IMG/VR virus record: IMGVR_UViG_3300025924_000017
Coordinates: 96,001-160,000 of that record
DNA: 64,000 nucleotides
From: a virus
Lineage: Duplodnaviria; Caudoviricetes
Reading direction: 5' to 3' (one strand)
In this document: positions 1-9,113 of the stretch, piece by piece
Position numbering within the stretch: position 1 is the first letter of the stretch
How the letters are laid out: every line of letters starts with the position of its first letter
Position numbers and translations under genes: made by a program
The notes under the pieces: generated by a model
What the model was told of the DNA's origin: nothing
The model's database searches: none
What the model saw: the letters and a program-made list of their open reading frames with translations, nothing else

Positions 1-34
1 ACGTGCGGAGATTCGCACTGAGACGATCTGAATT

Positions 35-123
35 CAGAGTGTCGGGTAGCTTGGCTGATCTCGCCCGGTTTGGGGCCGGGAGTCGAAAGACACACGTTGG
101 TTCGAATCCAACCACTCTGACCA
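35..123 (+). tRNA. tRNA-Pro(UGG), 15-nt variable arm
   Basis: CAGAGTG/CACTCTG acceptor, CCCGG-TT TGG GG-CCGGG anticodon arm, TTCGAAT T-loop, encoded CCA. Confidence 0.9.
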
Positions 124-131
124 TTTTTAAT

Positions 132-206
132 CAGGCTTTAGCTCAGCAGGAGAGCGCCCGCTCGGGAAGCGGGAGGACGCTGTGGCAGTGACAGCAAGCC
201 TGACCA
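132..206 (+). tRNA. tRNA-Pro(GGG), non-canonical T-loop
   Basis: CAGGCTT/AAGCCTG acceptor, TAGCTCAG D-arm, CCCGC-TC GGG AA-GCGGG, T-arm GCTGT-GGCAGTG-ACAGC, CCA. Confidence 0.85.
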
Positions 207-281
207 GTTTCGTGCGGTGTCTGAGCGCTACAAATATCGGGAGACAGAAAAGCGAGACTTCCCGAGCCGCACTTCGAATTC

Positions 282-363
282 GCCGGTTTGGCTCAGCAGC
301 GACAGCAGCAGTTTTGTAAACTGCCATTCCACATCGGGGGTGCGAGTCCCTCAACCGGCACCA
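282..363 (+). tRNA. tRNA-Thr(UGU)
   Basis: GCCGGTT/AACCGGC acceptor, GCAGT-TT TGT AA-ACTGC, T-loop TGCGAGT, CCA. Confidence 0.85.
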
Positions 364-370
364 TCATCAT

Positions 371-445
371 GCCCTCGAATAAGAGAAAGCGCTTTGCGTC
401 ATTGGTAGTGACGAGAGGAACGGGCAGGTCGTTCCGGGGGCACCA
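371..445 (+). tRNA. tRNA-Thr(GGU), degenerate D-arm
   Basis: GCCCTCG/CGGGGGC acceptor, CGTCA-TT GGT AG-TGACG, T-arm GAACG-GGCAGGT-CGTTC, CCA; D-arm poorly paired. Confidence 0.7.
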
Positions 446-452
446 ACAACAC

Positions 453-527
453 GCCGACTAAATTGAGATAGCGTAAGACCGGACTCGTAATCTGGTAGGG
501 GTGGCGCAAGTCCACCAGTCGGCACCA
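453..527 (+). tRNA. tRNA-Thr(CGU), degenerate D-arm
   Basis: GCCGACT/AGTCGGC acceptor, CCGGA-CT CGT AA-TCTGG, T-arm GGTGG-CGCAAGT-CCACC, CCA. Confidence 0.75.
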
Positions 528-542
528 AATCAAATCGAATAT

Positions 543-632
543 GCGCTGGTGACCCGAGTAGCGAAGGGCTGAGACTCTTAATCTCATGATCTAAAAAATC
601 CATCGCGGGTGCGAGTCCCGCCCAGCACACCA
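543..632 (+). tRNA. tRNA-Lys(CUU), long variable region
   Basis: TGAGA-CT CTT AA-TCTCA anticodon arm, C2.A71 mismatch, 18-nt variable region, T-loop TGCGAGT, CCA. Confidence 0.8.
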
Positions 633-637
633 ATTGA

Positions 638-731
638 GCGCCGGTGACCCGAGAAGCGAAGGGCCGGGACTTTTAATCCTGTTTGGTGTTCAACACCATC
701 GTCGTGGGTGCGAGTCCCACTCGGCACACCA
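638..731 (+). tRNA. tRNA-Lys(UUU), long variable arm
   Basis: CGGGA-CT TTT AA-TCCTG, variable hairpin TGGTG-TTCAA-CACCA, C2.A71 mismatch, T-loop TGCGAGT, CCA. Confidence 0.8.
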
Positions 732-741
732 GTTTCAGTTT

Positions 742-825
742 GGCCCTATGGCGTAATAGTAGGCGCGCTGGCTTCAGATACCAGTGTCTTTGGACGTGGG
801 GGTGCAAGTCCCTCTAGGGCTACCA
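742..825 (+). tRNA. tRNA-Leu(CAG)
   Basis: GGCCCTA/TAGGGCT acceptor, loop TT CAG AT, class II arm, T-loop TGCAAGT, CCA. Confidence 0.85.
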
Positions 826-830
826 AATTT

Positions 831-915
831 GCTCCCGTGGCGGAACGGTAGACGCGCTCCCCTTAAAGCGGAGTGACCTCGTGTCGTGGGAGTTCGATTC
901 TCTCCGGGAGTACCA
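831..915 (+). tRNA. tRNA-Leu(UAA)
   Basis: GCTCCCG/CGGGAGT acceptor, loop CT TAA AG, Leu-type D-arm, TTCGATT, CCA. Confidence 0.88.
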
Positions 916-924
916 GAAGAATTT

Positions 925-1011
925 GTCCGGCTGATCGGAATCAGTAGACGTGCTCGGCTCAAACCCGAGTGCCCTTGTGGCGTAGAGGTGCAAGTCCTCT
1001 GCCGGACACCA
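925..1011 (+). tRNA. tRNA-Leu(CAA)
   Basis: GTCCGGC/GCCGGAC acceptor, CTCGG-CT CAA AC-CCGAG, T-loop TGCAAGT, CCA. Confidence 0.88.
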
Positions 1012-1015
1012 GTTT

Positions 1016-1099
1016 GCTCTTGTGGCGTAAAGGTAGGCGCGTTGGTTCGAGAAGCCAATGGGTAAAACCGTGGGGGTTCAAGTCCCTCCAAGAGCACCA
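1016..1099 (+). tRNA. tRNA-Leu(GAG)
   Basis: GCTCTTG/CAAGAGC acceptor, loop TC GAG AA, TTCAAGT, CCA. Confidence 0.88.
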
Positions 1100-1101
1100 A
1101 G

Positions 1102-1210
1102 TTGAGTGATCGCAAGCGTTAGGACCCTGTGCTGCTCCACGATGCACTGACAAGGTCTCACGGCGATTGAGAGAGGGCATCTCACGGCGGGTCCGCTCCG
1201 CACCACTCAA
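1102..1210 (+). ncRNA. candidate structured RNA in tRNA array
   Basis: TTGAGTG/CACTCAA and GGACCC/GGGTCC stems enclosing 2-3 hairpins; no CCA, no T-loop consensus. Confidence 0.45.
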
Positions 1211-1219
1211 ACAAAACAT

Positions 1220-1295
1220 GCTGACGTAGGACCTGAGGCTGGGTCGCCTGATTGTGAGTCAGGAGTGAGTGGTTCGATTCCGCACGTCAGTACCA
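1220..1295 (+). tRNA. tRNA-His(GUG), no G-1, A73
   Basis: GCTGACG/CGTCAGT acceptor, CCTGA-TT GTG AG-TCAGG, TTCGATT, CCA; base at -1 is T. Confidence 0.85.
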
Positions 1296-1304
1296 ATTCA
1301 ATTC

Positions 1305-1377
1305 GGGGTGTCCGCGAGGTCCGGACTTGATCTTTGCAAGATCGAAGCGGTGGGTGCGAGACCCACACACTCCGCCA
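1305..1377 (+). tRNA. atypical tRNA-Ala(UGC)
   Basis: GGGGTGT/ACACTCC acceptor with G3:U70, TGATC-TT TGC AA-GATCG, T-loop TGCGAGA, G73, short odd D-arm, CCA. Confidence 0.7.
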
Positions 1378-1384
1378 AGTATAT

Positions 1385-1460
1385 GGGCCTGTAGCTCAGT
1401 TGGGAGAGCGCCTGATTTGCACTCAGGATGTCGGGGGTTCAAATCCTCTCAGGTCCACCA
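1385..1460 (+). tRNA. tRNA-Ala(UGC), canonical
   Basis: GGGCCTG/CAGGTCC with G3:U70, canonical D- and T-arms, loop TT TGC AC, CCA. Confidence 0.92.
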
Positions 1461-1466
1461 ACATAC

Positions 1467-1553
1467 GGATGCTGAACCCGGCGCGGGCTGGGACTCGCCT
1501 CGAAAGCGATGGGAGCCTCACGGCTTGGAGATCGAGCCTTCCGGCATCCGCCA
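1467..1553 (+). tRNA. tRNA-Ser(CGA)
   Basis: GGATGCT/GGCATCC acceptor, loop CT CGA AA, variable hairpin, T-loop ATCGAGC, CCA. Confidence 0.8.
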
Positions 1554-1569
1554 ATCAAATGCGAAGAAG

Positions 1570-1863
1570 ATGAAGAAGATCGGAAAGAGATATCTGGAGC
1601 GAGCGCAATACTACCGACGTCTCGCGCACGCTACGTGTCCGACCTTGGACTTCTCCGATGAGGCGCTGCGCCGCTGCTACGAATGGGAGAGCCACGGTGT
1701 GCGCTGTAGCGATCCAGACAACGGATACATGACAGGCAAGTCGCTCGTGAACCTGAATGTCGCAATGTGGAAGGAAGACATCGTTCGCGGAACGCTTTTT
1801 CTGTTCGAGTTGCGTGAGGACCCTGACATTCCAGAATGGGTCTTGAAGAATTTCGGAGAGTGA
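1570..1863 (+). CDS. hypothetical protein (97 aa) inside tRNA array
   Basis: Protein-like part of ORF 1327-1863 from ATG 1570 (MKKIGKRYLER...); the upstream part of that ORF overlaps tRNAs. Confidence 0.7.
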   Translation: MKKIGKRYLERAQYYRRLAHATCPTLDFSDEALRRCYEWESHGVRCSDPDNGYMTGKSLVNLNVAMWKEDIVRGTLFLFELREDPDIPEWVLKNFGE

Positions 1864-1946
1864 ACCGAGCAGGGATGCCGGGCGCGTTTGCTAAACGATG
1901 CGGAGGCCGAAAGGCTTTTTCGGATCAAGACCGACGCTCTCCTCCA
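1855..1946 (+). tRNA. tRNA-Ser(GCU)
   Basis: GGAGAGT/GCTCTCC acceptor, loop TT GCT AA, long variable arm, T-loop ATCAAGA, U73, CCA; overlaps last 9 nt of upstream CDS. Confidence 0.8.
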
Positions 1947-1951
1947 GTCAT

Positions 1952-2043
1952 GGATGCTTGGCCGAGTGGCTTAAGGCGGCGGATTTGAAATCCGCAGGAC
2001 CTCACGCGAGGTTCCGTCCGTTCAAATCGGACAGCATCCTCCA
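1952..2043 (+). tRNA. tRNA-Ser(UGA)
   Basis: GGATGCT/AGCATCC, GCGGA-TT TGA AA-TCCGC, long arm, TTCAAAT, U73, CCA. Confidence 0.9.
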
Positions 2044-2113
2044 ATCTAGGGCCTAGCGCAGCGCAACGTCGCGGGAAGGGTGAGAGGGTAGCGTCGCGGC
2101 TACCCGCGTAATT

Positions 2114-2205
2114 GGAGAGTGAACCGGACACGCGTGCCGGGCCTGCTTGGAAAGCAACGCGGACGGTGCAAGCCGTTTGGGGCGCAAGTCCTCCGCTCTC
2201 CGCCA
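2114..2205 (+). tRNA. tRNA-Ser(GGA)
   Basis: GGAGAGT/GCTCTCC, loop TT GGA AA (weak stem), long arm, T-loop CGCAAGT, CCA. Confidence 0.78.
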
Positions 2206-2211
2206 AATCGC

Positions 2212-2243
2212 TTGACACGATCCACGTCAGTGTGCCATAGAAT
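2212..2243 (+). promoter_or_regulatory. sigma70-type promoter
   Basis: TTGACA at 2212 with CATAGA/TAGAAT at about 2236-2243. Confidence 0.5.
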
Positions 2244-2286
2244 GCGACATCGCGCTTCTGCACCGGCGCGTCGGCCTAACGGCTAG

Positions 2287-2380
2287 GCCGGAGGGTTCGT
2301 CGAAGGGCGGAGAGGAGCAGGCTACGAGCCTGCGACCACATTGGTCTGAAAATCCGCCGCCCTGCGATCAACCCTCCGGC
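2287..2380 (+). ncRNA. candidate structured RNA (multibranch)
   Basis: 11-bp closing stem GCCGGAGGGTT/AACCCTCCGGC, further helices, two internal hairpins; non-coding gap after a promoter. Confidence 0.5.
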
Positions 2381-2398
2381 TATCAATTTTGGAAGTCG

Positions 2399-2611
2399 AT
2401 GTCACCTGAAGCTCTCACTCTGATCGCTAAGCTCCACGAAGCCCGCGACAAGCAAAACGCACCCCACGCGATCTACGCAACCGATAGGCCTGAGATGCTG
2501 GCGCTCGTTGCCGAACTCGTTGAACACGGTTATCTCGTCAAGCGTGTGCGTCGGGAAGTCGATCCTTTCGATTCCTACATGACAACTGACAAGAGCCTCC
2601 CAAACGCATGA
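2399..2611 (+). CDS. hypothetical protein
   Basis: 70-aa ORF, GGAAG SD, start/stop coupling to next gene. Confidence 0.65.
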   Translation: MSPEALTLIAKLHEARDKQNAPHAIYATDRPEMLALVAELVEHGYLVKRVRREVDPFDSYMTTDKSLPNA

Positions 2612-2805
2612 GGCGGCGCAAGTCTTTTCCAGAACTCGAAGCGCGCGAGCGCGCGATCCGTGACAGCGACCACGCGCGGATAGCTCGGGGTTTGGAGCCG
2701 ATCCGCTGCCCACGATGCGGAGAGAACGCTTCGCACTTCTTCCCACCCTGTTTCGGCGACCCCGGCTTTTGGACGTGCGTCGGTGTCATGGTACCAGCCA
2801 CATGA
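2608..2805 (+). CDS. small Cys-containing hypothetical protein (possible Zn ribbon)
   Basis: CPRCGE motif plus two further Cys; ATGA overlaps at both ends. Confidence 0.6.
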   Translation: MRRRKSFPELEARERAIRDSDHARIARGLEPIRCPRCGENASHFFPPCFGDPGFWTCVGVMVPAT

Positions 2806-3023
2806 CGTGCAGCACCGCCAGACGCTACCAATACCTGAACGTCATCACCGACACCGGCGAGCGCAAGGTCTTGCGTGTCTCCGACGCCACCATGCGCCGC
2901 ATCACCGAAGCCGCCCACAAGGCTAAGAACCCGACGATCTGGCAGCGGATCGTGCGGGCGTTTAAGCGCGTCTTCGCATCTGTCGCGGATCGTGTCACAG
3001 CAGGGTTGACAAAACGACGCTGA
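2802..3023 (+). CDS. hypothetical protein
   Basis: ATG 2802 overlaps the previous stop; basic 73-aa product. Confidence 0.55.
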   Translation: MTCSTARRYQYLNVITDTGERKVLRVSDATMRRITEAAHKAKNPTIWQRIVRAFKRVFASVADRVTAGLTKRR

Positions 3024-3034
3024 GCGGATATGCC
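3006..3034 (+). promoter_or_regulatory. sigma70-type promoter
   Basis: TTGACA-17-TATGCC upstream of the SD-led ATG 3063. Confidence 0.45.
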
Positions 3035-3062
3035 GGGTCTTCGCCATGTGAAGGACCCGACA

Positions 3063-4904
3063 ATGCTTGACGCCCAGACCCTCGACCTCTTCAAGGTCAT
3101 TGTTCTCGACGAGTTTGCTGTGCCGCCGGAAGGGCTGAGCGCAAAGCCGTATCTGGAAGACCTCCAGCAGGGCTTCGTCACCAATTTCATCCCGACGCCC
3201 CTTCAGAGGGCCGCACTCTGCAAGGCGTTCAAGCCGCTTCCGCTGGTGACGCTGTTTTCGGTCGCCGAGCGCCGGGCGCCCGACATCACTCCGATGTCGC
3301 TGATCATGACGCAGCTTCTCCACTACATCGAGGTCTACGGCCTCGACCAGCCGGGCTTGTTCAATCTCGAAGTCAAGCAGGGTAGCGTCGTGGTTGTCGC
3401 CAACGTTCGCGGCGTGACGGTCGAGGAACTTGGCGACATGGTCCGCGCCCTGATCTACGCGAACGCGCCGGTCCGCAAGATCGAGGACGTGATCGAACTG
3501 ATCAAGTTCCACAACATTCCTTATGACCTCGCACTCGTGAAGAACAACGAAGCGCGCATCCGCTTGTACCGGGACGGCGATCAGTTTGCGTCCGGAGACG
3601 ACGCTGTCCGCTACATCGTCTTCAAGACGACCGGCGACTCGCTCCTGATCAAGTCCCCGGAAGTCGTCGCAGCCGTGAAGTCCGGCGAGCGACAGGTTTC
3701 GTTGCACTTCCTGATGGCGCACGAGACGGTCTTGGCGCAGGTGTTCAATCGCCACAAGCGCATCATCATGGCGTTGAAGAACCGGCGCACGGCACAGGCG
3801 ATCAACCGCATTTCGCGCTTCTCGAAGACGAAGCACGTCCCGCTCCGTCCGGCGCTCAACAAGACTTTCATCGCCCGCGCGCTCGGCGATCTGCCGTTCG
3901 ACTACGAGGACGCGCTGGAGGTCATCTCCCTGCGCGACAAGTTCAAGTACCTGAACCTGCTCGAATGGCGCCGCTTGCAGAATACCGATGACGTGTTCAT
4001 CATCCGCAACGGCCGCGCGCATTTGGAGCCGGATCGTAAGGTCTACCCCACCAAAGACATCACGGCGCTCATTATGAGTGTTGCGGACTCGATTGAGGCT
4101 GATCTGCGACATCTGCAAGGCAAGTCGATCCTGCTCGATCCCAATGTCGATTATGGTCTGCCGACCTCCCAGAAGCAGATGCTCGGCAGCCTGCCGTTCG
4201 GCACCACGATCTCGGTCGGTAACGGGAACATCTCGTCCGGCATCTATTGGGAGAACCGTTGGGGCGCGACCGATCTCGATCTGGCAGCCATCGACGAGTG
4301 GGGCGAACGCACCGGCTGGGGCGAGTTGTCCGGATTCGACAATAACAATCCGATCCTCTTCTCCGGCGACATCACGTCGGCACCTGAAGGCGCCATGGAG
4401 TTCATGACCTCGGCGACGACGGATTGTGAGCGCGTCTACGGACTGCTGGTGAACATCTTCAACGGGGGTAACGAGGCCGAATGCGAACTGCTCGTCGGCT
4501 CCCAGTTCGAAGGCAAGAACGGTCAGACGCGTTCCGGGCGATCCGCGAAGTGGATCAAGTCGCCGGTGATCCGGGAGAAGGTGAAGCTCACCTCTCGCGA
4601 GACGATCCTCGGCTTCGTACGGAACGGGAAGTTCGTCGTGTTCGCCCCGCGCCTGTCGAACCGCCGTGTGTCCGGCGGCGAGATCACGCGCCGTTTGATC
4701 GCGAAGGGCATGGCGCCGGTCTGGACGATCAGCAAGCTGCTCGCCGTTGCGGGAATCAAGTACGACACGACACCCGTTGACGGTGTTGTCTACGATTACG
4801 ATCTCTCGTACGCGTCGTTTTGTGTTGACAAAATGGAGCGCATGTTGTTCAATCCTCAGCAGGTTACGCCGCAAAAGACGTTCCTTACAGAAACAGCGGC
4901 CTAA
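3063..4904 (+). CDS. large conserved phage protein with helical N-terminus and TerD-like C-terminal domain
   Basis: AAGGA SD before ATG 3063; C-terminal motifs DLDLAA and FSGDITSAPEGAMEF resemble TerD-like domains (recalled, not searched). Confidence 0.6.
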   Translation: MLDAQTLDLFKVIVLDEFAVPPEGLSAKPYLEDLQQGFVTNFIPTPLQRAALCKAFKPLPLVTLFSVAERRAPDITPMSLIMTQLLHYIEVYGLDQPGLFNLEVKQGSVVVVANVRGVTVEELGDMVRALIYANAPVRKIEDVIELIKFHNIPYDLALVKNNEARIRLYRDGDQFASGDDAVRYIVFKTTGDSLLIKSPEVVAAVKSGERQVSLHFLMAHETVLAQVFNRHKRIIMALKNRRTAQAINRISRFSKTKHVPLRPALNKTFIARALGDLPFDYEDALEVISLRDKFKYLNLLEWRRLQNTDDVFIIRNGRAHLEPDRKVYPTKDITALIMSVADSIEADLRHLQGKSILLDPNVDYGLPTSQKQMLGSLPFGTTISVGNGNISSGIYWENRWGATDLDLAAIDEWGERTGWGELSGFDNNNPILFSGDITSAPEGAMEFMTSATTDCERVYGLLVNIFNGGNEAECELLVGSQFEGKNGQTRSGRSAKWIKSPVIREKVKLTSRETILGFVRNGKFVVFAPRLSNRRVSGGEITRRLIAKGMAPVWTISKLLAVAGIKYDTTPVDGVVYDYDLSYASFCVDKMERMLFNPQQVTPQKTFLTETAA

Positions 4905-5007
4905 AAAGCCGCTCCTAAAATACGTCTCGCGGTTTTCGATTTTGTTGCAAAGGGTGTTCCTTAAAAACCCTTCTATGGCAAACACACCCCGCAACGCTCT
5001 CTGCGAG

Positions 5008-5040
5008 AGGCCATCCGAAAGGATGGCCTTTTGCATTTTG
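5008..5040 (+). terminator. intrinsic terminator
   Basis: AGGCCATCC-GAAA-GGATGGCCT followed by TTTGCATTTT. Confidence 0.8.
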
Positions 5041-5044
5041 TTTC

Positions 5045-5073
5045 TTGACACGACTGCCGTGATATGAGACAAC
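5045..5073 (+). promoter_or_regulatory. promoter of leader/tRNA array 2
   Basis: TTGACA 5045-5050, 17 nt, then GACAAC (GAGACAAC is 6/8 to the Caulobacter-type GCTANAWC); predicted +1 at about 5080-5081. Confidence 0.6.
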
Positions 5074-5080
5074 CTTCTCC

Positions 5081-5179
5081 ATGAGCAAGACCTTTACCAA
5101 CGTGCAGCAAGTCGTCCGCCGGAATCGCTATATTCCGGGCGGGGCTTTCGCGCGTGTGGAGAAGGATCACGGGTTCTAA
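5081..5179 (+). CDS. putative leaderless attenuator leader peptide MSKTFTNVQQVVRRNRYIPGGAFARVEKDHGF
   Basis: ATG at predicted TSS, no SD; the ORF spans helices 1:2 and 2:3; codons 7-18 are all read by downstream tRNAs. Confidence 0.75.
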   Translation: MSKTFTNVQQVVRRNRYIPGGAFARVEKDHGF

Positions 5180-5247
5180 ACCCAAAAGCTCTCCAAAGTT
5201 CTGCGAAAGGCCCGCCCGGTAAGCTCCGAGCGGGCCTTTTGCTTTTT
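5115..5247 (+). promoter_or_regulatory. transcription attenuator (1:2, 2:3 antiterminator, 3:4 terminator)
   Basis: 5115-5125 pairs with 5132-5143; 5135-5151 pairs with 5203-5219 (16 bp, one G.G) plus 5157-5162 with 5190-5195; terminator 5206-5239 with U-tract to 5247. Confidence 0.8.
5206..5247 (+). terminator. intrinsic terminator upstream of tRNA array 2
   Basis: AAAGGCCCGC-C-CGG TAAGCT CCG-A-GCGGGCCTTT then TGCTTTTT. Confidence 0.85.
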
Positions 5248-5256
5248 GCCTTTCAC

Positions 5257-5342
5257 GCGGATGCGAACGAGAGGCGAGCGATTGACGGTCTGTAAAACCG
5301 TTGCCTATGGCTGAATGGGTTCAATTCCCATCATCCGCACCA
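5257..5342 (+). tRNA. tRNA-Tyr(GUA)
   Basis: GCGGATG/CATCCGC, ACGGT-CT GTA AA-ACCGT, class II arm, TTCAATT, CCA. Confidence 0.88.
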
Positions 5343-5378
5343 AGGCAAAAACGAGAAGGTACGCAAGGAGAAGAATTT

Positions 5379-5455
5379 GCTTCGGTAGCTCAGTTGGTAA
5401 GAGCGCTGGCTTGAAATCCCAGAGGTCGATGCGTCGAGTGCATCCCGGAGCACCA
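5379..5455 (+). tRNA. tRNA-Phe(GAA)
   Basis: GCTTCGG/CCGGAGC, loop TT GAA AT, T-arm GATGC-GTCGAGT-GCATC, CCA. Confidence 0.85.
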
Positions 5456-5460
5456 TACAC

Positions 5461-5536
5461 AGTCCGTTAGCTCATTCAGGAGAGCGCTGGTGTCACATAC
5501 CAGAGGCGCACGGGGCAGAGCCGTGACGGACTACCA
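5461..5536 (+). tRNA. tRNA-Val(CAC)
   Basis: AGTCCGT/ACGGACT, CTGGT-GT CAC AT-ACCAG, T-loop GGCAGAG, CCA. Confidence 0.82.
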
Positions 5537-5540
5537 GCTT

Positions 5541-5616
5541 CCACCCGAGGCTGACTAGTGAGGCGGGCACCTGATTAGTGCCGTCAAGGTGAGTGCGATC
5601 CTCACCGGGTGGTCCA
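5541..5616 (+). tRNA. atypical tRNA with GAU anticodon (Ile)
   Basis: CCACCCG/CGGGTGG, GGCAC-CT GAT TA-GTGCC, U37, U73, T-loop TGCGATC, CCA. Confidence 0.7.
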
Positions 5617-5624
5617 GTTTTCAG

Positions 5625-5654
5625 ATCAGCGATGGAGATTCGTCGCTGGTTTTT
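5625..5654 (+). terminator. terminator-like hairpin inside array 2
   Basis: 10-bp stem ATCAGCGATG/CGTCGCTGGT (two G:U), then TTTT. Confidence 0.45.
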
Positions 5655-5730
5655 AGTCCGATAGCTCATTCAGGAGAGCGCCGCTGTGACATGGCGGAGG
5701 TGCGCGGGGCAGAACCGCGTCGGACTACCA
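5655..5730 (+). tRNA. tRNA-Val(GAC)
   Basis: AGTCCGA/TCGGACT, CCGCT-GT GAC AT-GGCGG, T-loop GGCAGAA, CCA. Confidence 0.82.
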
Positions 5731-5736
5731 AATCAT

Positions 5737-5813
5737 TCTCCGTTAGCTGGTCGGTCTGGCCGCTGGGCTCTGAACCCGGAAAGAAGAACGTTCGAATCGT
5801 TCGCGGAGAGCCA
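5737..5813 (+). tRNA. tRNA-Gln(CUG)
   Basis: TCTCCGT/GCGGAGA (U1:A72), loop CT CTG AA, TTCGAAT, CCA. Confidence 0.85.
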
Positions 5814-5818
5814 AACAT

Positions 5819-5894
5819 TGCCCGTTAATTGCTAGGTGCGGTCGCCGGGTTTTGACCCCGGTAGGAAAAGGTTCGAATCCTTTGCGGGCATCCA
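5819..5894 (+). tRNA. tRNA-Gln(UUG)
   Basis: TGCCCGT/GCGGGCA, CCGGG-TT TTG AC-CCCGG, TTCGAAT, U73, CCA; weak D-arm. Confidence 0.8.
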
Positions 5895-5900
5895 GAACAT

Positions 5901-5985
5901 TCCCTTCTGGCGGAACGAGTAGACGCGCTGCACTGTTAATGCAGTATCGAAAGATGTGCAGGGGCGGAGCCTGCGGAGGGAGCCA
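5901..5985 (+). tRNA. tRNA-Asn(GUU), long variable arm
   Basis: TCCCTTC/GGAGGGA, CTGCA-CT GTT AA-TGCAG, ATC-GAAA-GAT arm, T-loop GGCGGAG, CCA. Confidence 0.8.
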
Positions 5986-5994
5986 ATCAAATTT

Positions 5995-6070
5995 TGGTGT
6001 GTAGCTCAGTCGGCAGAGCGGCGGATTGTTAATCCGAAGGTCGCAGGATCGTACCCTGCCACGCCAGCCA
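5995..6070 (+). tRNA. tRNA-Asn(GUU)
   Basis: TGGTGTG/CACGCCA, loop TT GTT AA, T-loop ATCGTAC, CCA. Confidence 0.82.
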
Positions 6071-6076
6071 AATTAT

Positions 6077-6158
6077 AGTCGCGAAGTGCTGAATGGAACG
6101 GAGGCAACGCACTACGAATGCGTAAACCCTGTGGGTTCGAGTCCCACCGCGACTACCA
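6077..6158 (+). tRNA. tRNA-Arg(ACG)
   Basis: AGTCGCG/CGCGACT, ACGCA-CT ACG AA-TGCGT, TTCGAGT, CCA; enlarged D region. Confidence 0.82.
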
Positions 6159-6165
6159 GTTTTGA

Positions 6166-6241
6166 CGTGCCGTCGCCTAAAGGTAAGGCCCTTCGCTCAT
6201 AACGACAGTGTATGTGAGTTCGATTCTCACCGGCACCACCA
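6166..6241 (+). tRNA. tRNA with CAU anticodon (Met/fMet/Ile2 unresolved)
   Basis: C1.C72 mismatch, loop CT CAT AA, only 3-bp anticodon stem, TTCGATT, CCA. Confidence 0.7.
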
Positions 6242-6244
6242 AAT

Positions 6245-6327
6245 GGCCCCGTAGCTCAGCGGACAGAGCGCCGGTCTTCTAAGCCGGGAAATCAACGTCG
6301 GGGGTTCGACTCCCTCCGGGGCTTCCA
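6245..6327 (+). tRNA. tRNA-Arg(UCU)
   Basis: GGCCCCG/CGGGGCT, loop CT TCT AA, 12-nt variable region, TTCGACT, CCA. Confidence 0.88.
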
Positions 6328-6333
6328 GATCAC

Positions 6334-6408
6334 AGCCGCGTAGCTCAACGGAAAGAGCGCCAGTTTCCGAAACTGAGGATCGGTGTTCGATTCACCGCGC
6401 GGCTACCA
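6334..6408 (+). tRNA. tRNA-Arg(CCG)
   Basis: AGCCGCG/CGCGGCT, CAGT-TT CCG AA-ACTG, TTCGATT, CCA. Confidence 0.88.
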
Positions 6409-6576
6409 GTTCCGCCCTGTCATCTTTCTTGTCGATAATGTCGTCGTTCTTGACGAATACTCACCTCTATCATAAAATGCGGCCCATCAAACATCGCTAC
6501 GTGCCGGGGGCTCGAATGCGGATCGTCAGGGCGCATTTTGTCGCGCCCCGAAGTCAAAGCACCAGAGGGTTGCGTA

Positions 6577-6906
6577 GTGGATATCAGCGACATCGAAACC
6601 GATACCGCCGACCGGCGGCGCGCTCGCGGCAAGAAGCCGTCGATCTTCAACTGGGAGATCAATTTCGGGCACGTGGCTATCGTGCTCTCACTTTTTCTGT
6701 CCGCAGCAGGCCTTTACGCGCACGATGAGGCGCGTATCTCGGTCATCGAGAGCCGGGTCGATGACCTGACCTCCCAAAATCTCCCGCCGCGCATGGCTGC
6801 CGCCGAGACGCAACTCCACGACATTCACGACAGCATGAAGGAGGTCACGAACCTCCTTGGTCAGATTCACAACGACCTGTCTCAGAAAGCGGATAAGCCA
6901 AAATAA
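6577..6906 (+). CDS. single-TM membrane protein with coiled coil
   Basis: GAGGG SD before GTG 6577; hydrophobic HVAIVLSLFLSAAGLY then heptad-like C-terminus. Confidence 0.7.
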   Translation: MDISDIETDTADRRRARGKKPSIFNWEINFGHVAIVLSLFLSAAGLYAHDEARISVIESRVDDLTSQNLPPRMAAAETQLHDIHDSMKEVTNLLGQIHNDLSQKADKPK

Positions 6907-7131
6907 TTACTTCATAACCGGCGTCATAAACTCCCGGCGTCCTGTTCATTCCGTGTTCATAATGTTGGAGATCAAGGCATTCGCGGACGAAAAGTCCGGA
7001 AAATAACATCCACTGTCGCCAAATTGGATATTGCACTTTACGGCGAATCCATGTCAGCAAGACGTTAAGCGGCAGAGCGGGACCAATGGGGTCGTTAGCC
7101 TGCGCGCCTTGTTCAGACGAGGAAAGCAAGA

Positions 7132-7347
7132 GTGCGTACAAGGAACGTTGAAGGGGAAAAGAAGGTTGCACCGGCCGCGAATTATTTTGCAGTCGATGAA
7201 ATTCATAAACGGCTCATTAGCCGTGCACACGAACTAGCGGAACTTTCGCTTCAACCTCTCACGCCGGAACTCGTCGGCGAAATGGAAGAAGCTTCCAAGC
7301 ACTTCAACACCGACCTCGCGGAACTCCGTTCGCGGCGCATCGTATAG
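7132..7347 (+). CDS. hypothetical protein
   Basis: 71-aa helical ORF, purine-rich SD, precedes phoH. Confidence 0.55.
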   Translation: MRTRNVEGEKKVAPAANYFAVDEIHKRLISRAHELAELSLQPLTPELVGEMEEASKHFNTDLAELRSRRIV

Positions 7348-7373
7348 CGAGGTTTCACATCAGGGGAGAGTAG

Positions 7374-8180
7374 GTGGATCAGCCTAACGAGTTTTTCGAG
7401 CAAGCATCTCCGCCACCCCGTCTCACCAAATCGCAAGCAAGAGCAGCGCGCCGGGCCGAAAAGGCTTCTACGGGTGGTTCCGGCGCGCCTCTTACAGCCA
7501 AGACCGACAATCAGCGCCGGTATATCGACCGCCTCAAGCGCGGCCAGAGTTTGTTCGCTATCGGACCAGCGGGAACCGGCAAAACCTACCTCCCTGCGCG
7601 GATCGCGGCGCGCAAGCTCCTCGACAAGCAACTCGACAAGTTCATCATCGTGCGCGCCACCGTGGAACCCAACAAGCGCCACGCGCTCGGTTTCAAACCC
7701 GGCAAGCAGGACGACAAGCTGGCGCCGTGGATGATCCCGGTGCTGGACGGCCTGCGCGCGGAGATGAGCGGCGTCGTCCTCGACAAGCTCAAGAACGAGA
7801 AGCGGATCGAGTTCGCGCCTTTCGAAAGTATGCGAGGCCGCACGTTCAACAACGCGATCCTTCTGATCGATGAGGCCCAGAATCTCACGACCGCCGACCT
7901 CAAACTGGTTTTGACGCGTATCGGCGAGGACTGTCAGGTGATCGTCACCGGGGATACCGAACAGACCGATATCCCGGATTCCGGCCTTGCGCGCGTCGTC
8001 GCGATGACGCGCCGTCACCAGATCGAGATGCCTGTGGTCGTCTTTGACGAGGATGATGTGGTGCGCAGCGCCATGACCAAGGCATGGGTCAAGGCATTTG
8101 CCGCAGAATTTGGCAGTACTGCCGCATTTCTTGACGACCCTCCGGCGTTCCTGCAAAATGGCCGCTTAGTTCCCCAGTAA
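7374..8180 (+). CDS. phoH: PhoH-family ATPase
   Basis: GPAGTGKT Walker A, MRGRTF, LIDEAQN, TRIG and VTGDTEQTD motifs. Confidence 0.95.
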   Translation: MDQPNEFFEQASPPPRLTKSQARAARRAEKASTGGSGAPLTAKTDNQRRYIDRLKRGQSLFAIGPAGTGKTYLPARIAARKLLDKQLDKFIIVRATVEPNKRHALGFKPGKQDDKLAPWMIPVLDGLRAEMSGVVLDKLKNEKRIEFAPFESMRGRTFNNAILLIDEAQNLTTADLKLVLTRIGEDCQVIVTGDTEQTDIPDSGLARVVAMTRRHQIEMPVVVFDEDDVVRSAMTKAWVKAFAAEFGSTAAFLDDPPAFLQNGRLVPQ

Positions 8181-8198
8181 AAGCGACCTCCCACAGCC

Positions 8199-8726
8199 AT
8201 GACCTTTGCCTTTGTGGTCGAGACCGGCAACGCCGATCCCGATGCAAACTCCTACGCAGCCGTTGACTTCGCGGACGATTATATCTCCACGAACGCCTTT
8301 GTTGCCGACCTCTGGGCGACCCAGACGACGGATGAAAAGGAAAAATACCTCGTCCGCGCGTCCAAATACATCGACCGGACGATCCAGTGGAACGGCACCC
8401 GCGTGGACGACGAGTCGGGCCTGCGCTGGCCGCGCTCCGGCGTGTACGACGCGGATAGCTTCGAGATTCCCGATGACGTGATCCCGGAAGTCTTGCAGGA
8501 AGCCGTCTGCGAAGTGGCGTCACTCCTCGCCACCGGCACCGACTGGACACAGCCGCAAGACGGCCGAGGGATCAAGGACCTCAAGGCCGATGTCGTCGAG
8601 ATTTCGTTCAACTCGACGCAGGCGATGCGCGCGTCGCTCCCTGACTACGTCATCAACATGCTGTCCGATCTGGGTTCTGTCCGGGGAGGCACGCGCCCGT
8701 CGTTCAAGAAGATCACGCGGGCTTAA
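8199..8726 (+). CDS. head-tail adaptor (DnaT-like domain family)
   Basis: ANSYAAVDFADDY and LRWPR motifs; first gene of the neck block. Confidence 0.75.
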   Translation: MTFAFVVETGNADPDANSYAAVDFADDYISTNAFVADLWATQTTDEKEKYLVRASKYIDRTIQWNGTRVDDESGLRWPRSGVYDADSFEIPDDVIPEVLQEAVCEVASLLATGTDWTQPQDGRGIKDLKADVVEISFNSTQAMRASLPDYVINMLSDLGSVRGGTRPSFKKITRA

Positions 8727-8729
8727 GCC

Positions 8730-9113
8730 ATGAGCTTGCGCAATCTTGTCCGGCAGCAGGTCGCCAACGGCTTCAAAGCGTTCGGCGACATCCCGCGCCC
8801 GGCCGATTATTACCAGATGACCGGCGAGGTCACCCGCGATCTTGTCGCCGGTACGTCCGTCCCGGTGACAAACCACTACCCCCTCAAGGGCGTCATCTTC
8901 GCGAAGTTCGAGGAGAAGGAAAACGATAAGGACGTTTCACGCCTCACCGACGAGAAGGCGATCTTCCCGGCGCTCTATCTGCCGATCACGCCCAGCACCT
9001 CCGACACCATCGTCGATGAAAATGGCGTCGTTTGGGAGGTTGTGGACCGCCTGAGCGATCCGGCGTCCGCCGTTGTGGTCCTCCATATGCGGACCTCGCG
9101 CACCACGACCTGA
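8730..9113 (+). CDS. putative head-closure protein
   Basis: Size and position between adaptor and tail-completion genes. Confidence 0.6.
   Translation: MSLRNLVRQQVANGFKAFGDIPRPADYYQMTGEVTRDLVAGTSVPVTNHYPLKGVIFAKFEEKENDKDVSRLTDEKAIFPALYLPITPSTSDTIVDENGVVWEVVDRLSDPASAVVVLHMRTSRTTT

Follow-up and report, generated by a model that had tools for sequence, protein, structure and literature searches.

A candidate ribosome-mediated attenuator before a jumbo-phage tRNA array, with leader codons that mirror the tRNAs encoded downstream

Why phages carry arrays of tRNA genes, and when these genes are expressed, is an open question, for which the matching of codon usage, the replacement of degraded host tRNAs and the escape from anticodon nucleases have been proposed as answers. 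The same question is raised by a locus in a 64,000-nucleotide (nt) stretch of DNA, hereafter the window, which comprises bases 96001-160000 of an IMG/VR contig of 225.6 kb from an uncultured jumbo phage (IMGVR_UViG_3300025924_000017; 59% G+C, more than 31 tRNA genes and a permuted transfer-messenger RNA, tmRNA). In the window, a gene of 624 amino acids (aa; 3030-4904) is followed by an intergenic region (4905-5256), an array of tRNA genes (5257-6408), and then by PhoH-like and DnaT-like genes. What could decide whether this array is transcribed? An initial annotation of the DNA had seen in the intergenic region an attenuator of the trp/his type, serving as a sensor of tRNA depletion. The analysis presented here makes it highly probable that the region works as a ribosome-mediated transcription attenuator and senses the tRNAs of the array itself. 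The region contains a leader open reading frame (ORF), codons that match the genes downstream, mutually exclusive helices and a terminator placed before those genes, that is, every feature by which a leader-peptide attenuator can be recognized in sequence.

Between positions 5002 and 5247, on the plus strand, lie a terminator, a promoter, a 32-codon ORF, the overlapping helices 1:2, 2:3 and 3:4, and a terminator with a U tract. The first of these had been proposed at 5008-5040; a terminator scan recovers it, with 15 pairs, and moves the hairpin to 5002-5035, followed by a T-rich tail (whole element, 5002-5045). This intrinsic terminator keeps the leader promoter isolated from the 624-aa gene upstream of it; the same hairpin is found in a related contig (L030) with compensatory changes, from GGCCATCC/GGATGGCC to GGCCGTCC/GGACGGCC. 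The predicted promoter (5045-5073) has TTGACA as its -35 element (5045-5050), a 17-nt spacer and GACAAC as its -10 element (5068-5073), and transcription would start at or beside the A of an ATG at 5081, giving a leaderless mRNA. That ATG is not preceded by a Shine-Dalgarno sequence and opens the predicted leader (5081-5179), a 32-codon entry of the ORF list that encodes MSKTFTNVQQVVRRNRYIPGGAFARVEKDHGF and ends with a TAA at 5177-5179. TTGACA, ATG, frame and stop codon all lie where the initial annotation had put them. Codons 5-18 of the leader (5093-5134) read TTT ACC AAC GTG CAG CAA GTC GTC CGC CGG AAT CGC TAT ATT, and are referred to here as the codon panel.

The panel is overlapped by segment 1 (5089-5125), the 5' arm of a long 1:2 hairpin that appears in the minimum free energy (MFE) structure and, with compensatory pairs, in the consensus structure. 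Helix 1:2 itself pairs 5115-5125 with 5132-5143 and sits inside a longer hairpin (5089-5168). Segment 2 (5132-5168, core 5135-5151) can take either segment 1 or segment 3 as its partner, the latter through a 17-nt inverted repeat that is 94% complementary. Segment 3 (5203-5219), delimited by inverted repeats, is the arm common to the antiterminator and the terminator: a repeat search pairs it with 5135-5151 over 17 nt with one mismatch (2:3), and with 5226-5242 (3:4). Segment 4 together with the U tract (5226-5247; CCGAGCGGGCCTTTTGCTTTTT) forms the attenuator terminator, as seen in the MFE structure, the inverted repeat and the consensus fold; its hairpin spans 5203-5242 and is followed by TTTTGCTTTTT, and the tRNA-Tyr gene begins at 5257, 10 nt past the terminator. 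Folding and inverted repeats thus recover all three helices and the U tract that had been described beforehand, as well as the accessory pair TGGAGA (5157-5162) and TCTCCA (5190-5195). Only 0.07 17-mers within two mismatches of the segment 3 complement are expected in the 64-kb window, and such 17-mers were found only at segments 2 and 4. The leader stop codon lies in or at the loop of a small hairpin of the MFE structure, GGGTT-CTA-AACCC (5171-5183), whose counterpart in L030, GGAGC-CTA-GCTCC, occupies the same place with a compensatory change. As a whole, the RNA spanning 5081-5250 has a folding energy of -78.8 kcal/mol (z = -5.0 against shuffled sequences) and adopts the 1:2 hairpin, the stop-codon hairpin and the terminator.

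The identity of the panel codons connects this leader with the genes that follow it. The array (5257-6408, plus strand) holds the 13 tRNA genes that had been announced for it, with 12 distinct anticodons: Tyr GTA, Phe GAA, Val CAC, Ile GAT, Val GAC, Gln CTG, Gln TTG, Asn GTT (two genes), Arg ACG, Met CAT, Arg TCT and Arg CCG. Nine of them were called by ARAGORN at its default settings, Tyr by Rfam and Ile(GAT) by relaxed ARAGORN, while the two Val genes (CAC, 5461-5536; GAC, 5655-5730) were read by eye and show the elements of a cloverleaf with an odd T-loop. All codons of the panel except ACC are decoded by tRNAs of this array. Codons 7-18 are array-read without exception, which makes this the sole 12/12 window among 339,662 stop-free 12-codon windows in the six frames of the whole genome, where the background use of array-read codons is 32.5%. 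The leader also contains a 14-codon window that covers 10 distinct array anticodons, a number that is matched but not exceeded among about 325,000 windows, and its codons 2-18 sample 10 of the 12 anticodons of the array. Codons for Phe, Asn, Val, Gln, Arg, Tyr and Ile are represented in one or two copies each, and the panel goes down to the level of isoacceptors, with CAG and CAA for Gln, GTG and GTC for Val, and CGC and CGG for Arg. The leader is, in short, a codon panel of the array's tRNAs, which gives substance to the earlier idea of a tRNA sensor.

The odd T-loop is shared by several tRNA genes: Val CAC, Val GAC, Glu TTC and a second Asp GTC have T-loops like GGCAGAG instead of TTCRANY, and genes of this kind are also present outside the window (L033:6661-6746 and 6942-7016, L033 being coordinates within the same phage genome). 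They escape both default ARAGORN and the Rfam tRNA model, and tRNA counts for such phages are therefore underestimated.

Further evidence comes from relatives. Six homologous leaders were identified in other uncultured phage contigs: L030, L034 and L035 through homologues of the upstream gene in public assemblies (58-66% identical to that of the window), and L039, L073 and L087/L090 through DNA patterns. The alignment comprises these six and the leader of the window, and all seven precede a Tyr-first array (Tyr, Phe, Val, Ile, Gln, Asn, Arg), with only Tyr visible on the short L073 contig, which was left out of the counts of array matches. ORF and helices are conserved in all seven, so the trp/his-type layout extends, with compensatory changes, over seven divergent contigs. 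The ATG and the stop codon each fall in one alignment column; insertions and deletions within the ORF measure 3, 6 or 12 nt, and past the stop 1-4 nt. When each of the six leaders with a known array is compared with its own array, array-read codons make up 83 of 90 at positions 4-18, against 24 of 82 from position 19 to the end, which equals the background. The array anticodons are sampled almost completely in several of them (L039, 11/11; L090, 11/11; L035, 12/13; L030, 11/12).

The residues of the panel drift among relatives (TN/NR, V/F/I, RR/VR), and membership in the array-read set is kept. Every leader has one CAG and one CAA, in an order that swaps. In the six leaders whose array is known, ATA is confined to L034 and L035, both of whose arrays include a tRNA-Ile(TAT); L073, whose array is not visible, has ATA as well. 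Likewise, GTA is present in the leader of L034, and the array of L034 has a Val(TAC). Judged from these comparisons of sequence, the panel co-varies with the content of the array across relatives, and the retention of tRNA-set membership without retention of residues is what would be expected from selection on decoding and not on the peptide. Invariant residues are restricted to YIPGG and a few others, and the C-terminal half of the ORF is poorly conserved.

The search for more leaders covered several routes. The pattern CGGAAT-N0-3-TATATTCCGGGCG gave 46 metagenome and 3 IMG/VR matches, among which three loci were true, corresponding to two distinct leaders, L039 (on the same contig as L045) and L073; the other matches were rejected as chance, most of them lying within unrelated protein genes that encode '...YIPG...'. 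A looser pattern gave 59 matches in IMG/VR and no new leader. Screening 1.84 billion proteins with a profile of six leader peptides matched only the peptides of the window and of L034, and the 23 IMG/VR matches to the segment 2 17-mer were all due to chance. No leader or array was found directly downstream of the upstream-gene homologues in L002, L028, L029, L031, L032, L152 and L153, a PhoH-based search of loci returned only loci at 36% identity, and a DNA search of 4000-7000 against GenBank phages gave generic tRNA matches only.

The helices were then considered across the same alignment. Taken together, the seven sequences fold into a consensus of 1:2 plus 3:4 that includes 6 compensatory pairs, and a hairpin followed by a T tract occupies the position of the attenuator in all 7 leaders. 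In the alternative helix 2:3, standard pairs occupy 86.6% of cells and both sides have changed in 4 pairs (for example CTTTCGC/GCGAAAG, CTTTTGC/GCAAAAG, CTTTGG/CCAAGG and CCTTT/AAAGG); shifting the 3' partner by one to three columns lowers the pairing to 30-58%. Drawn from only seven related sequences, this covariation is supportive rather than conclusive. The two states are close in energy, with a gap of 0.2 to 7.5 kcal/mol over the seven leaders (below 4 in four of them), and the antiterminator is itself the MFE structure in L030 and L034.

The effect of a translating ribosome was modeled by masking the RNA from -15 to +12 around the A site at each codon and computing the expected pairs, an equilibrium treatment that ignores sterics and kinetics. 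In this model, a ribosome on the panel codons flips the terminator to the antiterminator. In the window, with the ribosome on codons 2-14, the expected 2:3 pairs number 21-24 and the expected 3:4 pairs 0-2, codon 9 being an exception (12 versus 10), and with the ribosome on codons 16-32 the terminator prevails with about 15 pairs, apart from a brief reversal at codon 30. The flip occurs near codon 15-16 in 6 of the 7 leaders.

How would such a leader be transcribed and translated? TTGAC is invariant across the 7 aligned leaders, the -10 position is occupied by GACAAC, TACACA, TAGACA, TATAAC or TAGAAC, and the ATG comes 6-9 nt past the -10. The phage genome contains at least 10 copies of a TTGACA-type promoter class, caagtgTTGACA-N17-TATAAC (genome 50712, 52245, 53556, 55016, 60845, 61748, 130048 and 144984, among others, the last two named being window 34048 and 48984), which from their sequence are probably host-sigma-70 early promoters of the phage. 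Given these copies, the leader promoter can be regarded as a variant member of this sigma-70-type class, with transcription expected to begin at the ATG or right next to it. The promoter with its +1 at the ATG, as proposed in the initial annotation, is in this manner backed by TTGACA, by the promoter class and by the -10 elements of the relatives, and is left with a weak -10 in the window. In alphaproteobacteria, many mRNAs are leaderless and are translated well (PMC4117421). An alphaproteobacterial-type host is suggested by the permuted (two-piece) tmRNA, since this form is typical of alphaproteobacteria; ARAGORN finds it outside the window, at genome 163814-164245, with the tag VANDNEPEALRFAA. 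The Ochrobactrum phage vB_OspM_OC (227 kb, alphaproteobacterial) was tried as a comparator and dropped, its tRNA genes being scattered and unsorted.

Put together, these features outline an insulated unit composed of terminator, promoter, leaderless leader, attenuator and 13 tRNA genes, which may operate as follows. A leaderless transcript would begin at the ATG and a ribosome would translate the 32-codon leader. Upon meeting a panel codon that is decoded slowly, the ribosome would stay on segment 1, leaving segment 2 to form the 2:3 antiterminator, and the polymerase would read into the tRNA genes. If decoding is fast, the ribosome would instead move through segment 2 to the stop codon, 3:4 would form, and the transcript would end at the U tract, just before tRNA-Tyr. 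As the products of the array accumulate, the leader would be translated faster and transcription of the array would stop by itself, so that the circuit would behave as a homeostat. The array would be transcribed whenever the tRNAs of the panel become limiting, whether they are of host or phage origin, and the circuit would also respond to the loss of host tRNAs. With about 14 panel codons to be read one after another, small delays over many isoacceptors may add up in the element. Regarding the physiological trigger, the cleavage of host tRNAs by anticodon nucleases, or starvation, is one possibility, compatible with the design; simple autoregulation of the tRNA supply is no less likely.

Several observations weigh against this proposal. 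The -10 GACAAC is weak and a consensus scan made no promoter call there. Panel codons occur in only one or two copies each, unlike the codon runs of classical leaders, and sensitivity to the loss of one tRNA may for this reason be low. Helix 1:2 imposes a constraint of its own on the panel codons CGC CGG AAT TAT ATT. A ribosome stalled at codons 16-18, where the panel ends, gives no antiterminator in the equilibrium model, and the leader of L039 switches only partly: its expected 2:3 pairs reach at most 14, with the expected 3:4 pairs standing at 7. When the RNA is folded only to the end of segment 3, 2:3 is favored over 1:2 in all seven leaders; because 2:3 beats 1:2 before segment 4 exists, the untranslated default may be read-through, unlike in trp. 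The logic is the same in either kinetic regime: fast decoding leads to termination and slow decoding of the panel to read-through. A second and a third leader of the same genome, described below, are without a canonical U-tract terminator. Finally, a tblastn search of GenBank phages with the 624-aa upstream gene gave distant cyanophage matches only, which leaves the locus with no cultured relative.

The alternative that survives best, unlikely as it is, takes the region for a translation-coupled switch that responds to general translation capacity or to amino-acid starvation, for instance as a timer of infection stages or as a device for read-through without translation. A stalled ribosome does report charged tRNA, and a shortage of amino acids would give the same signal; the partial folding just mentioned also suggests that an untranslated RNA prefers the antiterminator. 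However, a panel limited to the anticodons of the array, and co-varying with the array's content, is more than a general sensor would require, and amino-acid starvation is not relieved by more tRNA.

Less probable still is the view that the ORF simply encodes a small protein and has a terminator of its own, the array being expressed by constitutive leak-through or from another promoter with no regulatory link. The conserved length and frame of the ORF, which gene callers annotated as a 32-aa gene, and the invariance of YIPGG and a few other residues would fit a functional peptide. Those invariant residues are nevertheless encoded by nucleotides of helices 1:2 and 2:3, and the drift of the panel residues under a kept array-read membership that tracks the array, together with the poorly conserved C-terminal half, is not what such a gene would be expected to display. 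Moreover, the 10 nt between the terminator and tRNA-Tyr are too short for another promoter, and the conserved helix 2:3 would be left without a role.

There is very little to recommend a structured non-coding RNA, or a processing or insulator element (a small RNA with its own terminator), in which the open frame is incidental: the strong structure (z = -5) and the absence of a Shine-Dalgarno sequence would agree with it, but an Rfam 15 scan of 1-9000 (E up to 1) gave almost only tRNA matches and nothing in 5040-5256, T-box included, the ATG stands at the predicted +1 and the stop in one column in all seven leaders, lengths other than multiples of three are inserted or deleted only outside the frame, and the match between panel and array is unique genome-wide.

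Is the candidate attenuator before the Tyr-first array an isolated case in this genome? A second leader, which starts 330 nt before the window (genome 95670-95765; L033:7670-7765; MFAVLKSKPSTHLASASVLSLALSPATTPAI), precedes an array for Pro, Thr, Lys, Leu, His, Ala and Ser. Of its 28 residues, 26 belong to the set {A,L,K,S,P,T,H}, a score that ranks first among 242,270 windows of the genome. In the homologues, 31/31 (L034:1182-1298) and 30/31 residues (L090:9791-9904) fall in the set; a search of IMG/VR with its motif returned one chance match and G001 again. This leader has an SD-like (Shine-Dalgarno-like) AAGG and overlapping helices, followed by a C-rich, G-poor stretch that might be a Rho site. 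Since it has this stretch and no U tract, its mechanism may differ from that of the first leader. Within the Pro-to-Ser array, between the Ser(CGA)-like and Ser(GCT)-like genes, there is also an ORF of about 98 codons (window 1570-1863; L033:9570-9863).

A third leader, a leaderless 28-codon ORF with a promoter-like site (TTGACA-N17-GACAAC), was observed at L033:6497-6660 (genome 94497-94660) before a Glu/Glu/Asp/Asp block. It contains GAG, GAA and GAT once each, a match to the block that is not significant alone. It has a conserved C-terminus, RELERSTGRDM, a stop codon in a hairpin loop and a homologue at L090:7464-7610. The Trp/Gly block lies directly past a protein gene and has no leader. 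On balance, it seems probable that the roughly 40 tRNA genes of this lineage are grouped in blocks, of which at least two, and possibly three, would be gated by their own codon-mirror leader, as a self-calibrating homeostat at the level of isoacceptors that turns on when the tRNAs of a block become limiting, including upon cleavage or degradation of host tRNAs.

Upstream of the first leader, a tandem pair of units is found between the 624-aa gene and the upstream terminator (window 4869-4995), each composed of a GTTCCTTAMA motif adjoining a small hairpin. Such units are also present at L030:2640-2760 and L002:5750-5920, and in distant relatives, too, the motif lies 3' of the homologous gene; a phage-specific promoter and a site for protein binding are its possible functions.

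The mechanism envisaged for the first leader is a known one. The leaders trpL, hisL, leuL, thrL, pheL and ilvL of enterobacteria likewise combine a translated leader with regulatory codons, exclusive helices and a terminator before the genes, and take the speed of decoding as their signal. In contrast to them, the phage leader would regulate tRNAs and not enzymes, its panel comprises about 10-12 different codons for seven amino acids where theirs is a run for one to three, and it is phage-encoded, on a predicted leaderless mRNA whose untranslated default may be read-through. The integration of several aminoacyl-tRNA supplies by a single leader has precedents in ilvGMEDA (Leu, Val and Ile codons) and thr (Thr and Ile). 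Those leaders read no more than three amino acids and control enzymes of synthesis, whereas the leader described here would read seven, resolve isoacceptors and control tRNAs.

Other systems also set the expression of a gene of the decoding machinery by the charging or supply of the matching tRNA, as in the pheST attenuator (pheM) and the T-box, but pheM controls a synthetase and reads Phe only, and T-boxes bind uncharged tRNA without a ribosome. An attenuator before the tRNA-Phe genes of E. coli was considered as a possible precedent and dropped: in E. coli K-12, pheV has a sigma-70-type promoter directly before the tRNA and neither leader ORF nor attenuator. Full-text searches of the literature gave no description of tRNA genes, whether phage or cellular, under the control of an attenuator. 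What is new is the tRNA-gene target, the design of the panel and the phage setting.

If the proposed reading is correct, leader-peptide attenuation would extend from enzymes to tRNA genes, and this would be the first case of attenuation control of tRNA genes. The leader would constitute a natural multi-codon sensor of translation speed, in which about a dozen isoacceptors are integrated in a 14-codon stretch, and so compact an element could serve as a portable reporter of tRNA supply. For the biology of these phages, it would mean that the purpose of a tRNA array can be read from its own sensor, and that the phage measures the speed of decoding directly and makes its tRNAs on demand.

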